Shown piece after piece: positions 16,234-62,492 of a DNA stretch of 64,000 nucleotides. The first letter of the stretch is position 1. Each line of letters opens with the position of its first letter. The translations under genes were made by a program, and so were the position numbers. The notes beneath the pieces were generated by a model. It was given only the letters and a program-made list of their open reading frames with translations, searched no databases and was not told the origin of the DNA. The stretch lies in contig CAVOML010000024.1 of NCBI GenBank assembly GCA_963697015.1, positions 12,227-76,226 on the forward strand, given 5' to 3'. The stretch is from an uncultured Alphaproteobacteria bacterium. GTDB lineage: Bacteria > Pseudomonadota > Alphaproteobacteria > Rhizobiales > Xanthobacteraceae.

Positions 16234-18172
16234 ATCGGGTAGGAGGACGCCTTGCGGCGTCCCCCTCCCACACCACCGTACGTACGGTCCCGTATACGGC
16301 GGTTCGTCAAGCACGATTGAGGTGGCGGTGCAGTCCGATGAGGGACGGCAAACCGAGTTGTACGAAGAAGGCGGCGCGATAGGCATCGTTCATGTGGCTG
16401 GCCCCGGCATTCCACCAAGGACCGCGGCCGTTATAGGCCGATCGCCATGCCCGCTCCGGATCGAGCCCGCGTTGCATCAAGCGTTTGCGGCGCGTCCGTG
16501 GTCGTTTCCACTGGCGCCAGAGGACACAGCGCAGTTTGCGCCGCATCCAACCGTCAAGCTCCTCGAACACCCCTTTGGCCTGCGCCAGCCGGAAGTATTG
16601 CAGCCAGCCGCGCAGGATGGGGGTCAGGGTTCTGACGGTCGTTGCCAGTGTTCGTCCACGCCCTTGGCGCAGCGTCGTCCTCAGCTTGCTCCGCAACCGT
16701 TTCACGCTTTTGGCCGCCACCCGAAGGCGCGGTTGTTGGTGAGCGGTCATGGTGTAGCCGAGGAAGGTCCGTACCCAAGGACGGTCAACCGCGCTCTTCG
16801 CTGCGTTGACCTTGAGCCGCAGCCGCTCGGTCAGGAATCGCGTGATCGACGCCATCACCCGATCGCCGGCCCGCCGCGTCCGAACATAAATGTTGCAGTC
16901 GTCGGCGTAACGGCAGAAGGCATGGCCCCGTCGCTCGAGTTCCTTGTCCAGATCGTCGAGCAGGATGTTCGACAGCAGCGGCGACAAAGGACCGCCTTGC
17001 GGCGTGCCTTCGCTCCGTGCCGTCGTGATCCCGCCCGTCATCAATCCAGCCCGCAGGTAGCGGCGGATCAGCCGCAGCACCCGTCTGTCCGCGACCCGGC
17101 GCACCACCCGTGCCATCAGCACGTCATGGTTCACCCGGTCGAAGAACTTCTCCAGGTCAAGGTCGACGACGAAGCGTCGGCCTTCGACCACATGCGCCCG
17201 TGCGGCAAGCACCGCATCGTGCGCACTGCGCCCCGGACGGAAGCCGTACGAGCCCTTAGAGAAGCCTGGATCGAACAGCGGCATCAACACCTGATGCATC
17301 GCCTGCTGGATCAGCCGATCCACCACCGTCGGAATGCCCAATTGGCGCATCCCTCCGCCGGGCTTGGGGATATCCACCCCGCGCACCGGCTGCGGCCGGT
17401 AGCGGCCTTCCAGCAGTTCTTCCCTGATGCGCGGCCAATGCTCCTTCAGATGCGGCTGCAATTGCTCCACGCTCATCCGATCGATGCCCGCAGCGCCTTT
17501 GTTCGCCATCACCCGATGGTAGGCCGCCATCATGTTATCTCGGCTGACGATCTCCTCCATCAGCCGCACTTCCACCTCCGGAGGGGAAGGTTGCGGTCTT
17601 GCCGTGGCGATTGATGCACTCATTCCCTGCTCTGGCGGCTTCCGGCCGCTGCCCTCGGGGTGAGCACAACGCATCTCAGCGTCATCGTCTGCATCTGTTG
17701 CCACCATCGACAGACCGGCCTCCTCCGGTACTCGACGTTCGGCCCTTCGCCGGCTTGGTGCTGCCGACTACTACGGCCTCTGCTGACTTCTGCCGTCCCA
17801 TCCCGACGCCTTGCGACGCCGGTAGCACACCCGTTGCCGGGGGCAGGACGACAGACCTCCCAGGGTCAGTCGCGTGACCTTCGTGCCATATACCTGTCGC
17901 ATCTACGGCCGCATCCTCCGGGTGATATCGGGCTTCGGGTATTTGGGCTCCCTCGCCCGGATGCGGACGCCTCTTATGCGCTGGCTGTTCGTCAGGCCGG
18001 CACTTTGCTTACAGCTTCCTTCAGACCCCGCCTCGCGGCGACAGCCCTTGCTGTTCGGCTAACGGTTCCCATCACCAGGGTCCGTAGAGGACTCTCACCT
18101 CCAAGTCATCGACCGGACACCACGCCGGTCAAATCGCGCCAGTCACGGCGCTCCGCGCCATGCCTGGCGCAC
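16234..18172 (-). mobile_element. Group II intron, class C (IIC), full length (~1.94 kb)
   Basis: 5' end GTGCG at 18172. Domain V GAACCGCCGTATACGGGACCGTACGTACGGTGGTGT, domain VI hairpin ending CCTACCCGAT at 16234. Located 2 nt after the U-tract of the lon terminator. Confidence 0.93.
16307..17707 (-). CDS. ltrA: Group II intron reverse transcriptase/maturase (no endonuclease domain); true start uncertain
   Basis: KGAAGID, IPKPGGGMRQLGIPTVVDR, GTPQGGPLSPLLSNI, RYADD, domain X (LRGWLQYF). Confidence 0.96.
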   Translation of the reverse strand: MVATDADDDAEMRCAHPEGSGRKPPEQGMSASIATARPQPSPPEVEVRLMEEIVSRDNMMAAYHRVMANKGAAGIDRMSVEQLQPHLKEHWPRIREELLEGRYRPQPVRGVDIPKPGGGMRQLGIPTVVDRLIQQAMHQVLMPLFDPGFSKGSYGFRPGRSAHDAVLAARAHVVEGRRFVVDLDLEKFFDRVNHDVLMARVVRRVADRRVLRLIRRYLRAGLMTGGITTARSEGTPQGGPLSPLLSNILLDDLDKELERRGHAFCRYADDCNIYVRTRRAGDRVMASITRFLTERLRLKVNAAKSAVDRPWVRTFLGYTMTAHQQPRLRVAAKSVKRLRSKLRTTLRQGRGRTLATTVRTLTPILRGWLQYFRLAQAKGVFEELDGWMRRKLRCVLWRQWKRPRTRRKRLMQRGLDPERAWRSAYNGRGPWWNAGASHMNDAYRAAFFVQLGLPSLIGLHRHLNRA

Positions 18173-56080: not shown

Positions 56081-56866
56081 TCATTTCTTCCCGTAGCTCA
56101 CGCCCATGCCGGCGCGCACATCGGCCTGGATGCCGTAGGGCGCGATCGGATAGCGCAAACCGTTTTTGGCGAGTTGCTTCATCCCCACGATGGCCTTCAC
56201 GAGGTGCTCCGGCCTGAGCGCCATTAGCATCTCCTCATCGGGCACGCCACCATAACGCCGCTCGGCAAAACACGGCAGCGAGAGCGACGGCTCACCGGTC
56301 TTCAGCGCCCGCCCCCACGAATCCGCGCACGCGGTCTCGCCGACCACACCCCATTCGAACTTCTTGTAGCCGGTATATTGCAGGCCATTGATCAGGATAA
56401 TCATCTGGCCCGGCGTCGCGTAGACGAGGCAAATGTCCGGCGGATTGAGCCTCCCGCTGGTAAGCGGACTCACCGCCATCGCCTGGTAGCGGCCAAACGG
56501 CACGACATCCAACGCCTCCTGCCGCTTGCGTGCATCTTCCGCGGTACCATGCCAGACGCCGACATAGTTCGCGCCCTCGAGCCATTTCTCATCCGTCGGG
56601 CTGAGGCCAATCACGGCGCGGCATTGCGCGCCCACGAGATCGTCTGCGGTGATGCCCACGGTCCAGCCGAGCCGCGAGGCCATGCTGACGATCTGGTCGG
56701 TGGTATGCACCGCATTCGGCCGGCGGATCTTCGGGATCGCCTCCATGTCCTCGACGCGGGCAAACATCTTGATGCCCGTGACCGTCGTCCTCAGGCGCAA
56801 CAGGCTGTTGAGATCGGCGACCATGCCGGCGAGATCGAATTGTTCCGGCGGTGTCTGCTGTTGCAT
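56081..56866 (-). CDS. DUF169-like protein
   Basis: QCRAVIGL, PPDICLVYATPGQM, ETACADSW, SLPCFAERRYGG..EEM; start MQQQTPP after GGAGA. Confidence 0.8.
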   Translation of the reverse strand: MQQQTPPEQFDLAGMVADLNSLLRLRTTVTGIKMFARVEDMEAIPKIRRPNAVHTTDQIVSMASRLGWTVGITADDLVGAQCRAVIGLSPTDEKWLEGANYVGVWHGTAEDARKRQEALDVVPFGRYQAMAVSPLTSGRLNPPDICLVYATPGQMIILINGLQYTGYKKFEWGVVGETACADSWGRALKTGEPSLSLPCFAERRYGGVPDEEMLMALRPEHLVKAIVGMKQLAKNGLRYPIAPYGIQADVRAGMGVSYGKK

Positions 56867-56959
56867 GGCGTTGTCTCCCAAAAGCGGCTTTGCGGTGATC
56901 CTAGTGCCGCCGCGACGCTCCGGGAAGAGTGTTCCGTGCCGGCAACGACAAGCGGCCAC

Positions 56960-57450
56960 GTTCCCGCGGCGGGATTCGCCCGGGTGATGCAGCAAGCGAG
57001 GCCCTCGAAAATCGAGAGGGCGCAGGGAATGCCGGATGCCGAAACGCACCCGCAGCCTTGCGTGCAAAATGGAAGAAAGCACGCACGCAAGTCGTGACAG
57101 GTACGCCGAACATTCCGGCATTCCCTGCGCAATGGTTTACGACTTATAGCGCGCTCTCCCCGGTGTCCGGGCTTTTTAGCCACCGTCGCCCGTGAAAGAA
57201 AGTCCACGGGCTTGATCCCAGCGTCGGGAGATCAGGACCACACGCCTTTGCCGTCCGCATCGGCAGCGTTCGTCAACTGCACCAATGCGTCCATCGCATC
57301 CCGCACCACGTTTCGTGACGATCTAGAAGCGCCCCTCTGTCGGCGCGGAATGGCACACCATATACACCCGATCGCGCGTTCTGAAAAACAGAATCTTTTT
57401 CATCGAAGGGCTTGACACGAATTCGGAAAATCAGCCCGTCGGGCAAATCA
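56960..57450. repeat. Long structured interspersed element of Bradyrhizobium type
   Basis: Perfect 17-bp inverted repeat GCGCAGGGAATGCCGGA (57020-57036) / TCCGGCATTCCCTGCGC (57114-57130) plus several nested hairpins; overlapping ORFs look non-coding. Confidence 0.7.
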
Positions 57451-57766
57451 GTTGGCGCGTGACGCCGCCGCGGCACGTTTTAAGGCGGCGAGTCCGAGAA
57501 TGGAATTCCGAGTCGCAGCGATGTATTGATCGTCCCCACCTGTGCTCTGAATTCACTTCCGCCTTCGGCGGTACAGCGGACGTAGCTGGACTCGCTGCTG
57601 GCTTGACCCGGTCCAGAATGACCCAACTCGGACATCGGGCGTGACCGAACAGCAGCCCGTCCTGCTTTGATTTGGGGTTATCGCAGAATCTGTCCAGACC
57701 CTGTACGCTAAGGGCTCATGCGTTCGGTCGGCGTCCATGTTCGACGTTGAGACGAGGCGGGGAAGC

Positions 57767-59125
57767 ATGCGTCTTGTTCTGAAGATGTTCAAATTTCTTG
57801 TCGCGATTGTGCTTCTCGGGATTTTGGGGTTCAGCGGCTGGCTAACCTTCAGCCCACCCGATGGGCTGCTGTCCGCCTCGGCCTATGCGGCAAAAATGGT
57901 CTGCTCAAACGTGTTCATTGCCAAACGCGACGCGACTGCGGTCATTGGAACCGACGTGGAGTTTGCACTTCCTCGTATCGTCAAACGTATGAAAATCAAC
58001 GTGGACACCGCCAACCAGCGTGTCGGGGTGGCATATTTAGGCCTGTTTGCCAAACGCTACGCCCAATATGAGGGGGGACGCGGTTGCACATTGGTCTCAA
58101 AGAACGAAATCCCCCACCGCGCCGCGCCGCCTTTGCCCCCAGCAACGTCTGACGCGCTCTGGCCGGCTGGCGCGAGGGTACAATTATCCGACGACAAGCG
58201 TTTGCTGGCAGCGCTGAACGATCCGGCTCTCCAGGGACCCGGCATGCGCGCGATCGTCGTGGTCCATGACGGGCGCATTGTCGGCGAGACCTATGGCGAA
58301 GGCTTCGACGCTTCGACGCCCTTACTCGGCTGGTCGATGACGAAGACCGTGAACGCTGCCCTGGCCGGCATGGCGATCAAGGACGGAAAGCTTTCGCTGG
58401 ATCAGAAGAATCTGTTTCCGCAATGGGCCGGCGACGCGCGCGCGGAGATCTCGGTGGCCGATTTGATGGCCATGACAAGCGGATTGGAATGGAATGAAGA
58501 TCAGGGCAATTCTCCCGACCCTGGACCATTGGAGAATCTTGCAAGGGATGCGGTGGCTTTCGCGAGGGACCGCGCGCTTGTCACCCCGCCTGGAACGAAA
58601 TTCAATTATTCCGGCGGTTCGTCCGTCCTATTGGCGCGGCTCTGGCAGAACGCGATTGGAGCGGAAGCGCGAGCTTATCCGCAAGAGCGATTGTTCAAGC
58701 CTTTGGGCGTGACCAGCGCTGTTCTCGAATCCGACCCTTCAGGCACGTTCCTTGGAGAAGGGTTTCTCTACGCCAATGCGCACGATTGGGCGCGCTTCGG
58801 CGAATTGTTGCGCCTGGACGGAGAATGGAACGGCGAACAGCTTTTGCCGATGGGCTTCGTCGATTACATGCGTTCGCCCGTGCCAGCGTCCGACGAGGGA
58901 CATGGCCCGGTCTACGGTCGCGGAGGGGTTTGGTTGGCGCGGGGCGAAGGATTCAACCTCCCTGCCGACACCTTCATGTTGCAAGGGCACCTCCGCCAGG
59001 TGATCGCGATCATTCCCTCGCGTAAACTGGTGATCCTGCGCATGGGTTTAACGCGGGAAGATATTGGGTACAGCGTCGCGAAACTGCTGTACGCGATTGT
59101 CGCGGCGCGCCGATCGAATAAATGA
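57767..59125 (+). CDS. Serine hydrolase, beta-lactamase class C-like, N-terminal membrane anchor
   Basis: SxxK motif WSMTKT, LMAMTSGL, FNYSGG, ARFGEL. Confidence 0.9.
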   Translation: MRLVLKMFKFLVAIVLLGILGFSGWLTFSPPDGLLSASAYAAKMVCSNVFIAKRDATAVIGTDVEFALPRIVKRMKINVDTANQRVGVAYLGLFAKRYAQYEGGRGCTLVSKNEIPHRAAPPLPPATSDALWPAGARVQLSDDKRLLAALNDPALQGPGMRAIVVVHDGRIVGETYGEGFDASTPLLGWSMTKTVNAALAGMAIKDGKLSLDQKNLFPQWAGDARAEISVADLMAMTSGLEWNEDQGNSPDPGPLENLARDAVAFARDRALVTPPGTKFNYSGGSSVLLARLWQNAIGAEARAYPQERLFKPLGVTSAVLESDPSGTFLGEGFLYANAHDWARFGELLRLDGEWNGEQLLPMGFVDYMRSPVPASDEGHGPVYGRGGVWLARGEGFNLPADTFMLQGHLRQVIAIIPSRKLVILRMGLTREDIGYSVAKLLYAIVAARRSNK

Positions 59126-59267
59126 TGCGATTACTTCCGCGATTGTGAAGGTTTGCGGATGTTGGCCCCATGAATTCGCGAAGGCCAGAGCTTAGCCGTG
59201 CTGAATTTGCTTTGTTCAAGGAGGTCGGCTACGAATGAGCAAAGGGCAGGACGACTTGGGAGGGGAC

Positions 59268-59672
59268 ATGTCCAGCACGGGCTATGCATTGACAGGCTTC
59301 GTCTCGTGGGCGCTCCTTCTGCTGGTAATGATGGAAGCCATCCGAACTCATTTTGTCGTGACCGGAAAGGTCGCGGCCAACGCCTTCACGCCAGACAACT
59401 CCGGATTATCGCCCTTCATGCAGCGCCTCGCCCGCGCGCATGCCAATTGCATCGAAGGTCTGCCAATTTTCGGTGGCTTGTTGGCGATTGCCATCATGAC
59501 ATCAAAAACAGGAATCACGGACCCTCTGGCGCTTTGGCTTCTTGGCGCAAGGATCGTGCAGTCGACTATCCATCTCGCCTCGACCAGTCCGGTAGCAGTA
59601 AGTCTCCGCTTCGCCGCTTTCGCCGTCCAGATGGCGATTGGTGTCTATTGGTCATGGAAGCTGATGGTCTAA
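59268..59672 (+). CDS. MAPEG-family membrane protein
   Basis: RLARAHANCIEGLPIF, ARIVQSTIHL; RBS GGAGGGG. Confidence 0.88.
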   Translation: MSSTGYALTGFVSWALLLLVMMEAIRTHFVVTGKVAANAFTPDNSGLSPFMQRLARAHANCIEGLPIFGGLLAIAIMTSKTGITDPLALWLLGARIVQSTIHLASTSPVAVSLRFAAFAVQMAIGVYWSWKLMV

Positions 59673-59688
59673 GGATTTGGCCAAGTAG

Positions 59689-60504
59689 CTATTTGGCTTT
59701 GCCGTCCCTGGCATTCACCGCCACGGAAGCCTCGCTCGTCAGCAACAGGAACGTGAACGTCTCCTGCAGATAGAGCCGCACCTTCTTGTCATCGTGGCTG
59801 AGATAGCCGATCGACACGTCCTCGCCGATATGCAGGGCGAAATCGCCGCCGCGCGTCGTCAGCACGAACGCGCCTGAGATTGCCGGCGCCCAGATGATCT
59901 CGCCGTCCACGAGCTCCCTGATGTGCTGCATGACGGGATGGCCGTGGTCGCTGCTCTCGCTCAGCTTTGTGTAGGCGTCCGCCCCGAGCAACACCGAATA
60001 GGGGCCGTTGACGCCCTCGAGGCGCAACTGGCTGAGCGCGTGCGCGATGACGTCGGGATAGGCGCGCACGTCTGACGGCAGCGTGAGGATCGGATTGCTG
60101 GTGCCCTCACGGATGCCGCCGATGCCGGCGGCGGCATATCCGTCGAAGATGGCCCGATCCTCGGCGAAGGCCAGAATCTTCGCAGCGTCTTTCGCGGGCT
60201 GCCAGTCGGAATCCTCGGCGCCGCGCTCGACGTCATCGATCTGCTGGCGACCGAGCTCGAAGGGAACGCGCAGCTCGACCAGCGGCTTGACCTCGCGCTG
60301 CCGCGCCAGGATTCCGTCTCCGGGCGCCTTGAGGTTCTGCAAATGGCCCGTGCCGATGGCGGAAAGCGCCGTACCGCCGGGCCCCTCCACGTCGACGACG
60401 CGCCGCCCGGCCAGATAGCGCTTGAGGGTGCGCGAGGTCTCTTCCTCGATCTCAGCCCAGGCCTCATCCGATATCGGGGCAAGCTCACGGTGAAGGTTAT
60501 TCAT
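59689..60504 (-). CDS. Family 1 encapsulin shell protein (linocin M18-like)
   Basis: MNNLHRELAPISDEAWAEIEEE, RRVVDVEGP, FAEDRAIF, GGDF.L.IG.D.SIGY.SH, YLQETFTF. Confidence 0.95.
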   Translation of the reverse strand: MNNLHRELAPISDEAWAEIEEETSRTLKRYLAGRRVVDVEGPGGTALSAIGTGHLQNLKAPGDGILARQREVKPLVELRVPFELGRQQIDDVERGAEDSDWQPAKDAAKILAFAEDRAIFDGYAAAGIGGIREGTSNPILTLPSDVRAYPDVIAHALSQLRLEGVNGPYSVLLGADAYTKLSESSDHGHPVMQHIRELVDGEIIWAPAISGAFVLTTRGGDFALHIGEDVSIGYLSHDDKKVRLYLQETFTFLLLTSEASVAVNARDGKAK

Positions 60505-61574
60505 GAGGCGGGGTCTCCTTTGAGCGAACCAATGTCGAGCGAGCCTTTGCGTTTTGGCGACGCCGTTGGCGCGGGCGCTGCATCAGCGGGCTCGTCCGGA
60601 ACCGCCGCGGCCGGCTCGTCGCCCGCGACGTTGTCGAGGAAGGTCGCCGACGGCACGAAGAACAGATTGCCGGTCCTGGCCACGCTGAAATCGAGCAGGC
60701 GGTCGTAATTGCCGGGCGGCCGGCCTACGAACATGTTCTCCAGCATCTGCTCGATGGTTCGCGGCGAACGCGCATAACCGATGAAATAGGTGCCGAACTC
60801 GCCCTCGGCGACGCGGCCAAACGGCATGTTGTCGCGGACGATCTTCATCTCCTTGCCGCCCTCTTCGATGATGGTGAGCGCGTTATGCGCGCAAGAGGGC
60901 TTTGTGGCGTCGTCGAGCTCGATGTCGGAAAGCTTGCCGCGGCCGATGATGCGCTCCTGGGTTTCCGTCGACAGCGCGTTCCAGCCGCCCATGTCGTGCA
61001 GATATTTCTGCACGATCACATAGCTGCCGCCGGCGAAGGCAGCGTCCTCGTCCCCGATATAGGCGGCGGCGTTCGCGGCTTGCGCCGTCGGGTTCTCGGT
61101 GCCATCGACGAAGCCGAGCAGGTCGCGGTCGTCGAAATAGCGAAAGCCATGCACCTCGTCGACTGCGGTCACGGCATCACCGAGCTTCGCCATGATCTGG
61201 GTCGCGAGCTCGAAGCACAAATCCATGCGCCTGGCACGAATGTGAAACATGAGATCGCCCGGCGTCGCCACCGCATGGCGCGGGCCGGCCTTGATCTCCT
61301 TGAACGGATGCAGCTCCGCTGGACGCGCTCCGCCAAACAGCCGGTCCCAGGCGTCAGATCCGATCCCCATCACGCAGGACAGATTTCCCTCGATGTCGCG
61401 GAAGCCAACGGCGCGCAACAGCCCCGGGAGGTCACCGCAGAACGACCGGACCGCCGTGCGGCTCGCGCTGCCGGGATTGATGGTCGCAACCAGGAAGATC
61501 GCGGCGCGCGTCAAGGCCCCGACCACCGACTGGGAATCGGGGGGCTGCCCGGATGGCGCAGGCGGTGCATTCAT
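60501..61574 (-). CDS. Dye-decolorizing peroxidase (DyP), encapsulin cargo
   Basis: GFVDGTENP (GxxDG), IVQKYLHD, proximal His in AHNAL, RDNMPFG; C-terminal targeting peptide GSLDIGSLKG. Confidence 0.95.
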   Translation of the reverse strand: MNAPPAPSGQPPDSQSVVGALTRAAIFLVATINPGSASRTAVRSFCGDLPGLLRAVGFRDIEGNLSCVMGIGSDAWDRLFGGARPAELHPFKEIKAGPRHAVATPGDLMFHIRARRMDLCFELATQIMAKLGDAVTAVDEVHGFRYFDDRDLLGFVDGTENPTAQAANAAAYIGDEDAAFAGGSYVIVQKYLHDMGGWNALSTETQERIIGRGKLSDIELDDATKPSCAHNALTIIEEGGKEMKIVRDNMPFGRVAEGEFGTYFIGYARSPRTIEQMLENMFVGRPPGNYDRLLDFSVARTGNLFFVPSATFLDNVAGDEPAAAVPDEPADAAPAPTASPKRKGSLDIGSLKGDPAS

Positions 61575-61682
61575 CGGATCGCCCCTGCCGGTCGCGCCCT
61601 GTCAACAGAAGTCATCGATGATGCGTCCAATCTCCACGAATTGACCTAACACTGTAGCGGCGGCCCGTCTTTCGTCTACGCA

Positions 61683-62492
61683 CTAATTTGTGGACGCGGG
61701 TCCTGGAAACAGCTCGTCGGTCCGTCCCGTCAGGCGATAGGCAATCAGCCCCAGCCATTCCCGCACCGCCAGATTGGTGTACTCAAGGCCATCCTCCGAT
61801 TGGATCGGAAAATGCGTGAGGTCCTTCTCTCCCGCAAGCCGCCAGTCGACGGGACATGGCTCAACCGCAAAGCCCACTTTCCGGAAAATCCCGACCGAGC
61901 GCGGCATGTGGAAGGCCGAGGTCACGAGCAGCCAGCGCTCGCCGGGTTTTGGATCGGCGAGCTTCTTCGAAAATTCCGCGTTCTCGAACGTATTGCGCGA
62001 CTCCCGCTCGATGATGAGCCGCTCTTTGGCAATGCCAAGGCCCTCAAACACCTTTGCGGCGTAATCGGCTTCCCTGGCGGAAGTGTCGTTGAGGTAATTG
62101 GCGCTGCCGCCGGAATAGAGGATGCGCGCGTTCGGAAAGCGATGCGCCAGCATGGCCGCGGAGATGATGCGGCCGGCCGAATTGGAGAACACCGCTTCGC
62201 CATGGGCGGCGGACGGATCGGCATCGATCCCGCCTCCGAGCACGACAATACCGTCGGGCGCGCCGTGCGAGGCGTCCCAGGGCGGAAAGCGCGACTCCAG
62301 CGGATACATCAGGAGACTTCCAACCGGCGTGAATCCGCAAATTGCGAACAGCAGCGCCGACGCAACCAGCAGTCCGCGGCCGAGCTTCGCCCATCGTGTC
62401 AGGAGCAGGAGCACGCCGAGCAGGCCGAGCTCGATCAGAAGATTGATCGGCAGCAGCATGATGCCGAGCGTCTTGGAGAAGGCGAAAAACAA
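61683..62492 (-). CDS. YdcF/DUF218 family membrane protein
   Basis: IVVLGGG, SRNTFENA, LVTSAFHMPRS. Confidence 0.9.
   Translation of the reverse strand: MFFAFSKTLGIMLLPINLLIELGLLGVLLLLTRWAKLGRGLLVASALLFAICGFTPVGSLLMYPLESRFPPWDASHGAPDGIVVLGGGIDADPSAAHGEAVFSNSAGRIISAAMLAHRFPNARILYSGGSANYLNDTSAREADYAAKVFEGLGIAKERLIIERESRNTFENAEFSKKLADPKPGERWLLVTSAFHMPRSVGIFRKVGFAVEPCPVDWRLAGEKDLTHFPIQSEDGLEYTNLAVREWLGLIAYRLTGRTDELFPGPASTN

Follow-up and report, generated by a model that had tools for sequence, protein, structure and literature searches.

HEARO, the omega-RNA of IscB (RF02033), is an ornate RNA on a multi-copy unit, many copies of which are devoid of an ORF, and it was found as a dispersed repeat. 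Earlier members of this group of large RNAs proved to be guide RNAs or large RNA assemblies. Class C group II introns have a hairpin on their 5' side, insert beside hairpins and, if ORF-less, are mobilised in trans, and tRNA genes are conserved structured-RNA genes that occur by the dozens and serve as anchors of genomic islands. Among the shorter repeats, REP, REPIN and BIME sequences have been described (Di Nocera et al., 2013, PMC3733652; Hahn et al., 2016, PMC5082802), and the 2016 paper on repeats and sRNAs in Bradyrhizobium reports short REPs only, i.e., Br-REP1 and Br-REP2 of B. japonicum (Hahn et al., 2016, PMC5082802). A further kind of repeat are MITEs such as Correia, ERIC and RUP, and reviews on MITEs are available (PMC10969869; PMC3184786).

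Here, we describe a family-specific, protein-free unit of 0.5–0.65 kb that looks like the carrier of a candidate multi-domain RNA of ~400 nt, encoded on the minus strand. Like HEARO RNA, this would be a large and ornate RNA with support from covariation, located on a mobile, multi-copy unit without an ORF, but there is no match to HEARO in sequence or structure, the copies are old and resident and the fold is larger (~400 nt). Furthermore, unlike for HEARO, no TnpB-type gene was detected: TnpB (PF07282) had no match in the genome of the repeat (G000) or in another complete genome of the genus (G076), with control genomes positive, and the IscB domain PF14239 had no match either, the control genome being silent for it as well. 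With ORF-less class C introns the unit shares the size of a ribozyme (~400–600 nt), candidate tertiary loop contacts, insertion adjacent to hairpins and the absence of a target duplication; unlike these introns it has no domain V or D1–D4, its ends are not GUGYG...AY, the hairpin lies on its 3' side and there is no sequence link to the resident introns. As for REP, REPIN and BIME sequences, the copies are intergenic, dispersed, hairpin-rich, often located past gene ends and targets of IS110-type elements; moreover, the terminal palindrome contains CGTC as in REPs, and REPs adjoin most copies. Unlike a REP or BIME, the unit is ten times longer (513–655 nt compared to 20–40 nt for the tagged palindromes of REP units), combines ~15 helices in a constant order with long-range pairs and with G-U pairs that are strand-specific, and only its terminal palindrome and its long hairpin are REP-like; Br-REP1 and Br-REP2 differ from it in sequence. 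The unit resembles MITEs in being non-autonomous, non-coding, multi-copy and intergenic with occasional bursts, and it differs from them by the lack of terminal inverted repeats, of a target-site duplication and of a parent IS with the same ends. Finally, by analogy to tRNA genes as island anchors, there are many conserved copies of a putative RNA gene with variable DNA at one end, although here this is the 5', promoter-like end and the variable blocks have no common integrase.

Bradyrhizobium comprises major nitrogen-fixing symbionts and is very abundant in soil. The ~400-nt fold, backed by covariation, is among the largest bacterial RNA candidates without a function, and it poses the puzzle that dozens of copies are ~30% divergent while each of them is constant at the same columns across species. 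The element may help to explain where Bradyrhizobium genomes are plastic. Moreover, it yields spurious ORF calls and breaks assemblies, and a covariance model would let annotators mask it.

Genomic setting of the repeat

The window, i.e., the whole stretch of 64,000 nucleotides that was analysed, holds a copy in the spacer 56868–57736 between two divergent genes, a DUF169 gene on the left (56084–56866, minus strand) and a beta-lactamase-family gene on the right (from 57737, plus strand). The whole repeat unit comprises 513 nt at 56941–57453 with the minus strand as the RNA-sense strand (nhmmer profile match C24:69167–69679), and the limits 56960–57450 proposed in the preliminary description come close to these profile-defined ends. 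Conservation profiles of the unit were drawn for 37 and for 112 copies. On the left, homology to the intergenic region of a relative ends near 56912, and a degenerate REP-like stretch (56913–56940) lies between this conserved intergenic DNA and the element. On the right, an accessory block of 4.8 kb (57454–61699) directly abuts the element and encodes a beta-lactamase-family hydrolase, MAPEG, an encapsulin with a DyP peroxidase, and DUF218. In 11 related species this site lacks the element as well as the block, and the block is present in contigs of the same species.

Throughout the genome the copies are intergenic and lie in either orientation to the neighbouring genes, 23 of 37 just beyond the 3' end of a gene that reads toward the left end of the element. 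In G000, 34 of 50 copies have the folded strand on the leading-strand side, i.e., on the lagging-strand template. With an origin near position 0, the same applies to about 14 of 17 copies in G076. The bias is mild and does not exceed the one seen for ordinary genes (p = 0.15 relative to a baseline of 60%).

The right end was observed to be a hot spot for the gain and loss of accessory DNA. In the genome of the repeat, all five comparisons revealed 0.8–5.2 kb of extra DNA directly adjoining this end, and links between species through the flanks number about 25 on the left compared to 7 on the right. The genes of these blocks are unrelated, and neither shared cargo nor a shared recombinase or integrase was found among them. 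Of four accessory blocks, one carries close to its far end a palindrome resembling the terminal motif of the element (see below), and another has a half-site in this place; this is too little to regard the motif as a site of recombination.

Copy number, age and distribution

The preliminary description had noted a resemblance to a sequence dispersed in Bradyrhizobium genomes, and the repeat was indeed found in many species and is multi-copy in its own genome. A single copy, raised there as a counter-argument, is not what the searches returned: in the 6.9-Mb genome, BLAST and an iterated nhmmer profile gave 58 matches, 37 of them full length and about 20 partial. These copies are 60–85% alike, with a mean pairwise identity of 69% and a maximum of 85%, one segmental duplicate aside, and judged by this divergence the repeat is old in its own genome. 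The exception consists of two copies which together with both flanks are 93–97% identical (C9:102852–103405 and C20:12200–12708), i.e., either a segmental duplication or a contig-level assembly duplicate. Across 112 copies from many genomes the conservation is blocky, and runs of 20–40 columns with 90–100% identity alternate with variable hairpins.

A 21-nt block of the element was found in more than 117 contigs, which belong to named Bradyrhizobium species and to unnamed alphaproteobacterial MAGs. Within the same family, a covariance model of the central domain detected the element in 32 of 151 genomes, representing 14 of 62 genera, and there were no matches in 147 genomes from 60 other families of the order. 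It occupies about 0.4% of each Bradyrhizobium genome. Neither a plasmid collection (72,556 plasmids) nor a phage collection (50,697 records) contained a match. A search of Rfam release 15 at E <= 1 with both strands of three subfamilies gave nothing real, as solely chance matches to miRNA hairpins appeared, far under their thresholds. The element matches neither a known IS end nor an Rfam family, either of which had been named as grounds for refutation. In the literature searched, the element and its sequence strings are unreported and the short Br-REP1 and Br-REP2 alone turned up; as far as these searches reach, the repeat is undescribed.

A conserved fold on the minus strand

The fold had been drawn on the plus strand in the preliminary description, while covariation and G-U pairs place it on the minus strand. 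The minus strand of the window copy folds with -237 kcal/mol (z = -5.9, with none of 100 shuffles as good), whereas the plus strand reaches z = -2.0 only, and the RNAalifold consensus energy is -267 for the minus compared to -220 for the plus strand. Over the 117 consensus pairs, G-U cells number 1587 for the minus strand as opposed to 238 for the plus strand, and several consensus pairs are kept as G-U across copies. The predicted fold is assigned to the minus strand because its G-U pairs are 6.7 times as frequent as those of the mirror image.

When mutual information was scanned in an unbiased way over every pair of columns, the Watson-Crick pairs of the predicted helices came out on top, and an analysis of the consensus fold in 57 copies gave 74 pairs, 31 of them compensatory. 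For the central domain, a covariance model termed R1 (173 positions) was used to align 97 copies, in which 96.5% of the cells are paired (84.8 +/- 0.4 in shuffles) and 24 of 35 pairs change on both sides (15.1 +/- 1 in shuffles). The covariation score is 0.384 compared to 0.175 for shuffled alignments and 0.04–0.10 for slid partners, and none of 500 shuffles reached the observed values. The absence of significant covariation, which had been named as evidence against a structured element, is therefore not what the repeat copies display. It was shown in these alignments that the minus strand keeps ~15 predicted helices by compensatory change, and more than 100 copies from different genera have these ~15 helices in an identical order.

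The structured core spans ~400 nt (56955–57352, minus strand) with ~117 consensus pairs in 15 helices, as defined by RNAalifold, covariation and G-U pairs. From 5' to 3' it is composed of the P1 hairpin domain, the P2 region, the long hairpin P8 and two 3' hairpins. The P1 domain (57298–57351, minus strand) is closed by P1 (57298–57307 with 57342–57351), which encloses P1a (57315–57320 with 57330–57335) and near-invariant single-stranded blocks. Six of the ten P1 pairs occur as at least two Watson-Crick types with both bases exchanged, and the pairs 57303/57346, 57305/57344 and 57306/57343 rank high in the mutual-information scan.

The adjoining domain (57129–57297, minus strand) is closed by the long-range helix P2 (57129–57135 with 57291–57297), which encloses P3 and a four-way junction. 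In P2, columns 68–74 are paired with columns 285–292 in 98–100% of cases and alternate between G-U and G-C and between A-U and G-U; its support is weaker because no pair changes on both sides. The variable hairpin P3 (57256–57268 with 57278–57289, in the domain 57256–57289; minus strand) corresponds to helix 2 of R1, and 7 of its 11 pairs are compensatory. The four-way junction domain (57139–57254, minus strand) contains helices 3–7 of R1, which are 95–99% paired in the 97 copies, and it holds top pairs of the mutual-information scan. Its closing stems are 57139–57143/57250–57254 and 57149–57160/57234–57245 (minus strand), and its arms, all on the minus strand, are P7 (57161–57165/57181–57185), P6 (57188–57195/57204–57211) and P5 (57214–57219/57228–57233), with changes on both sides at 7 of 7 pairs of P6 and 4 of 6 pairs of P5 in the same 97 copies. 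Instead of the second closing stem, an enclosing pairing of GAGAGGGCGC with GCGCGCTCTC had been proposed earlier, which contains a mismatch, overlaps with the 17-bp helix described below and finds no support from covariation; covariation pairs 57149–57160 with 57234–57245 in its place. A tentative tertiary contact on the minus strand, spanning 57167–57227, would join the loop of P7 (57167–57169) to the loop of P5 (57225–57227) in a loop-loop (kissing) interaction. A single pair of it clearly covaries, i.e., 57167/57227, which is C-G in 87 copies and T-A in 15 (94% Watson-Crick), its carriers being diverse with a median identity of 71%.

The long hairpin P8 (57022–57128, minus strand) consists of three parts (57022–57035/57115–57128, 57038–57053/57097–57111 and 57057–57066/57082–57091) and includes the 17-bp helix already noticed in the preliminary description, whose sides 57020–57036 and 57114–57130 are exact reverse complements. 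The arm motif of P8 occurs 87 times inside copies and 29 times outside, and P8 is the part most often standing alone in other genera. The region of the 3' hairpins (56963–57021, minus strand) contains P9 (57001–57006/57016–57021) and P10 (56963–56971/56977–56984), where positions 56971 and 56977 form G-C in 54 copies and A-T in 38, and 9 copies have A-C. The three inner hairpins listed earlier (TGCGTGC/GCACGCA, CCCGTG/CACGGG and TGATC/GATCA) were all recovered, each of them inside a covarying helix. A terminator-like hairpin can be drawn on the plus strand as well, and it is contradicted by the covariation, which favors P7 instead.

Protein coding was rejected, in agreement with the non-coding nature assumed from the start: no reading frame is conserved among the repeat copies, none being open in at least 80% of them beyond 32 columns, and the 3-base periodicity is weak and non-significant.

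Ends of the element

On the minus strand, the fold is preceded by a modular, A+T-rich right-end module (57353–57453) that has no consensus structure and occurs in three or more variants, as seen in an anchored read-out of 37 copies and with RNAalifold. The terminal string noted before, TCTGAAAAACAGAA...CTTGACA...CCCGTCGGGCAAATCA, is present here. Its outward-facing TTGACA (57412–57417, plus strand) is conserved as GGCTTGACA at a distance of 16–40 nt from the right end, and in subfamily Y of G076 the box is located 16 nt from the sharp right end. The terminal motif CCCGTCGGGCAAATCA (57435–57450) has the palindromic core GCCCGWCGGGC and is almost specific to the element, as 38 of its 62 genome-wide matches (at most 1 mismatch) are at right ends of the element, in either orientation. 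In the variants B and C of the module the motif is directed toward the interior of the element on the minus strand, and in variant A, to which the window copy belongs, it points outward, away from the fold. A simple sigma-70 scan detected no canonical sigma-70 promoter in the window copy. Because of the outward motif and the empty scan, we infer a promoter at this place rather than recognise one.

The left end of the element is the 3' end of the fold. In most other copies a REP/REPIN hairpin ending in ...ATGAC(A/G) precedes the anchor ATTCCCGCGGC by 20–27 nt, and such hairpins, which belong to several families, are found ~20–50 nt from the left end in most copies. At least four REP families adjoin this end, and in left flanks such as those at C17:24418, C14:144022 and C3:103368 the palindromes are nested, with one family inside the loop of another.

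The left and right ends of the copies in the genome of the repeat are unlike one another. No clean empty sites were found among relatives, where the orthologous intergenic DNA is either unalignable or lacks both element and block, and the site is occupied in all contigs of the same species. The ends of the element were taken from the recent copies in G076 and not from empty sites.

Mobility of the unit

G076 contains six copies of 655 nt which are 94–96% identical and have sharp ends on both sides, and in addition a second subfamily with 84–92% identity. The unit has been mobile, since these six near-identical copies are sharp-ended. On their left they end with ...AGACA(C/T)GCC and on their right with ...GACACAGGCG, the common part being a direct GACAC of 5 nt; there are no terminal inverted repeats at these ends and no duplicated bases in the flanks that would represent a target-site duplication. 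No version of the element in G076 contains an ORF. A mini copy of ~200 nt (G076:C1:5853635–5853828) possesses both ends of the 655-nt subfamily and lacks bases 136–580.

As the unit spread without terminal inverted repeats or a target duplication, it depends on machinery acting in trans. For the same reason it is not a strict MITE. Apart from this, the interpretation offered in the preliminary description (structured RNA or MITE) is supported, as the element is a dispersed, non-autonomous, once-mobile unit that at the same time carries a multibranch fold. Neither the genome of the repeat nor G076 contains a parent IS that has the same ends together with a transposase gene. The former encodes about 18 reverse transcriptases (RTs) of the group II type, 10 IS110 transposases and a few Y1/RAYT-like proteins, and none of these genes is found consistently beside copies. 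The search for a co-occurring transposase or RT suggested earlier thus came out negative for this genome, and nothing was found in support of the accompanying suggestion of a ribozyme-like or RT-mobilised element.

Several candidate mobilisers were rejected one after another. The RAYT-like genes share 11-mers with the element at background level, and the inverted repeats that flank RAYT genes are unrelated to it, e.g., the GTAG-type repeats around the single RAYT-like gene in G076. Mobilisation by a reverse transcriptase was rejected as the element shows no relation in sequence to the group II introns of its genome, and the RT genes in G076 are fragmentary. An ORF-less group II intron was discarded on the basis of both strands of three subfamilies, which gave no Rfam match to domain V or D1–D4 at E <= 1; furthermore, boundaries of the type GUGYG...AY do not coincide with the sharp ends of the recent copies on the folded strand. 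An element of the IS110 bridge type was rejected as its interior loops match neither ends nor flanks: a conserved complementarity of at least 8 nt between ends, junction or flanks and the interior was not detected. A TnpB/IscB guide RNA was dismissed as no TnpB gene was found in G000 or G076; for IscB, the domain PF14239 gave no match, as was the case for its control.

Insertions into the element

Three split copies in other genomes (L077:3312–4710, L074:3467–4758 and L066:845–3956) contain complete IS110-family elements of 1.3–1.4 kb. They are inserted at profile positions ~116 and ~220–235, which correspond to ~57052 and ~57157 in the window, and all three have one orientation relative to the element. 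Other split copies elsewhere carry IS4/5-like and rve-type insertions. In the genome of the repeat, one copy (C3:437106–440121) is split by a complete IS66-family element, whose genes were assigned by Pfam to the accessory protein HTH_Tnp_1, the Orf2 protein TnpB_IS66 and the transposase DDE_Tnp_IS66. Since the inserts are complete, separate elements, the repeat is a target of IS elements and not a derivative of one, and it seems to be a landing site for RNA-guided IS110 recombinases.

Selection on resident copies

Twelve sets of copies share a flank between species. In 4 of 7 loci of the genome of the repeat the copies that share a flank are not each other's closest relatives, and part of the between-species signal could therefore stem from replacement instead of change in place. 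For this reason, the test for constraint was restricted to nine same-locus pairs between species whose members are mutually closest relatives. In these nine pairs, 2.1% of the family-conserved columns differ compared to 22% of the other columns (Fisher p = 3e-79). Moreover, of the changes affecting both sides of a pair, 27 stay paired and 10 do not, and of the one-sided changes 76 stay paired and 49 do not. By this comparison it was shown that the resident copies are still under purifying selection after speciation. A dead transposon is unlikely, since conserved columns and pairing are held in the resident copies.

Interpretation of the repeat

We consider it probable that the element is a non-autonomous, once-mobile cassette with a large structured RNA as its payload, which selection maintains at every locus. 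The unit has spread as a discrete piece with fixed ends, as the copies in G076 show, and relies on machinery in trans for this. The alignments show that its minus strand keeps ~15 helices with a four-way junction and a long-range closing helix, and the resident copies remain constrained after speciation. The A+T-rich right-end module may constitute the promoter region, and the REP hairpin past the left end might terminate or stabilise the transcript. A lead for the promoter is the terminal motif, which stands behind a TTGAC box in three terminator-ended tandem units (see below) and is directed into the element in variants B and C. The RNA could be useful at each locus, or through copy-specific arms, and usefulness per locus would explain why dozens of copies are kept. 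At the same time, accessory DNA is exchanged at the right end and IS110-family elements land in the conserved body, as both were observed. A more ambitious version of this reading, in which the element constitutes a new class of large bacterial RNA, similar to OLE or HEARO in size and ornateness, with dozens of selectively maintained genes in each genome of Bradyrhizobium and related Xanthobacteraceae, acting as the core of an RNP or ribozyme or as a marker of sites for accessory exchange, is conceivable, and we regard it with some doubt. No partner protein or mobiliser was found in G000 or G076. Against an RNA cassette it can be argued that G-T wobbles form in single-stranded DNA too, for which reason the fold could belong to a DNA intermediate. 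Under this rival explanation the unit would move via a single-stranded intermediate in the manner of IS200/IS605 (peel and paste), IS91 (rolling circle) or recombination at integron attC sites, and the conserved structure would be the feature recognised by an enzyme or by the priming machinery. The absence of terminal inverted repeats and of a target duplication, the structure being kept by one strand alone, the palindromes at or near both ends, the location on the side of the lagging-strand template in most copies of G000 (34/50) and G076 (about 14/17) and the occurrence of Y1/HUH-type genes in both genomes would be in line with it. Yet short terminal hairpins suffice for the known elements of this kind, whereas here a 400-nt fold with a four-way junction and pairs kept specifically as G-U is maintained; the orientation bias does not exceed that of ordinary genes, the surroundings of the Y1 genes have no sequence in common with the element, and selection on copies that stay in place is unexpected for a substrate of transposition. 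Altogether, a single-stranded DNA origin of the fold seems unlikely to us.

The selection at each locus would also be accounted for by a role in cis, if the element were not a discrete RNA gene but a BIME-like mosaic, i.e., a fixed cluster of REP-type palindromes with an effect on adjacent transcripts or on the DNA nearby, possibly acting as a terminator, 3' stabiliser, insulator, outward promoter or binding site of a nucleoid protein. The intergenic position with most copies just beyond a gene's 3' end (23/37, toward the left end), the several adjoining REP/REPIN families and the plus-strand terminator-like hairpin together with the outward TTGACA fit such a mosaic, and the long hairpin resembles a REPIN; a mosaic origin is hinted at by the fact that this hairpin also occurs alone. 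In contrast to the variable BIME mosaics, the ~15 helices are in fixed order in more than 100 copies across genera, with long-range helices and the candidate loop-loop contact being kept. Moreover, the plus-strand terminator conflicts with the covariation of P7, the orientation relative to the neighbouring genes is mixed and the repeats around RAYT genes are unrelated, so that a cis-acting mosaic appears improbable. Even less credence is given to a remnant guide RNA or ribozyme of a known RNA-dependent element (group II intron, IS110 bridge RNA or TnpB/IscB omega-RNA) that is mobilised in trans. A large, structured, multi-copy RNA without terminal repeats and target duplication is the expected appearance of such a remnant, and the genome of the repeat offers its group-II-type RT and IS110 transposase genes (about 18 and 10). 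Against this stand the lack of an Rfam match to group II, HEARO or any other family at E <= 1, of TnpB in both genomes and of intact RT genes in G076, the absence of any part of the element beside such genes and of complementarity between ends or flanks and interior loops, the nature of the IS110 genes as complete, separate insertions that target the element, and the REP hairpin lying 3' of the RNA, while class C introns have their hairpin 5'. By these findings a membership in the named RNA-dependent families is largely refuted.

Related sequences elsewhere in the genome

The terminal motif of the element is shared with three tandem sRNA-like units (C6:237100–237700), in which it stands behind a TTGAC box. 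In these units TTGAC(A/C) is followed by CGTCGGGCAAATCAG, then by ~50–60 nt and an intrinsic terminator, and they have no Rfam match. They may be of the type of the sRNAs BjsR6a–c of Hahn et al. 2016. The units may correspond to published sRNAs with predicted RpoD promoters. Furthermore, one of the ~18 RT genes of the group-II-intron type is located in the window itself (16751–17371, minus strand). Among the RT genes of this genome, five copies with frames of 486 aa and eleven with frames of 551 aa have identical scores, and because of this identity two intron families look recently active.
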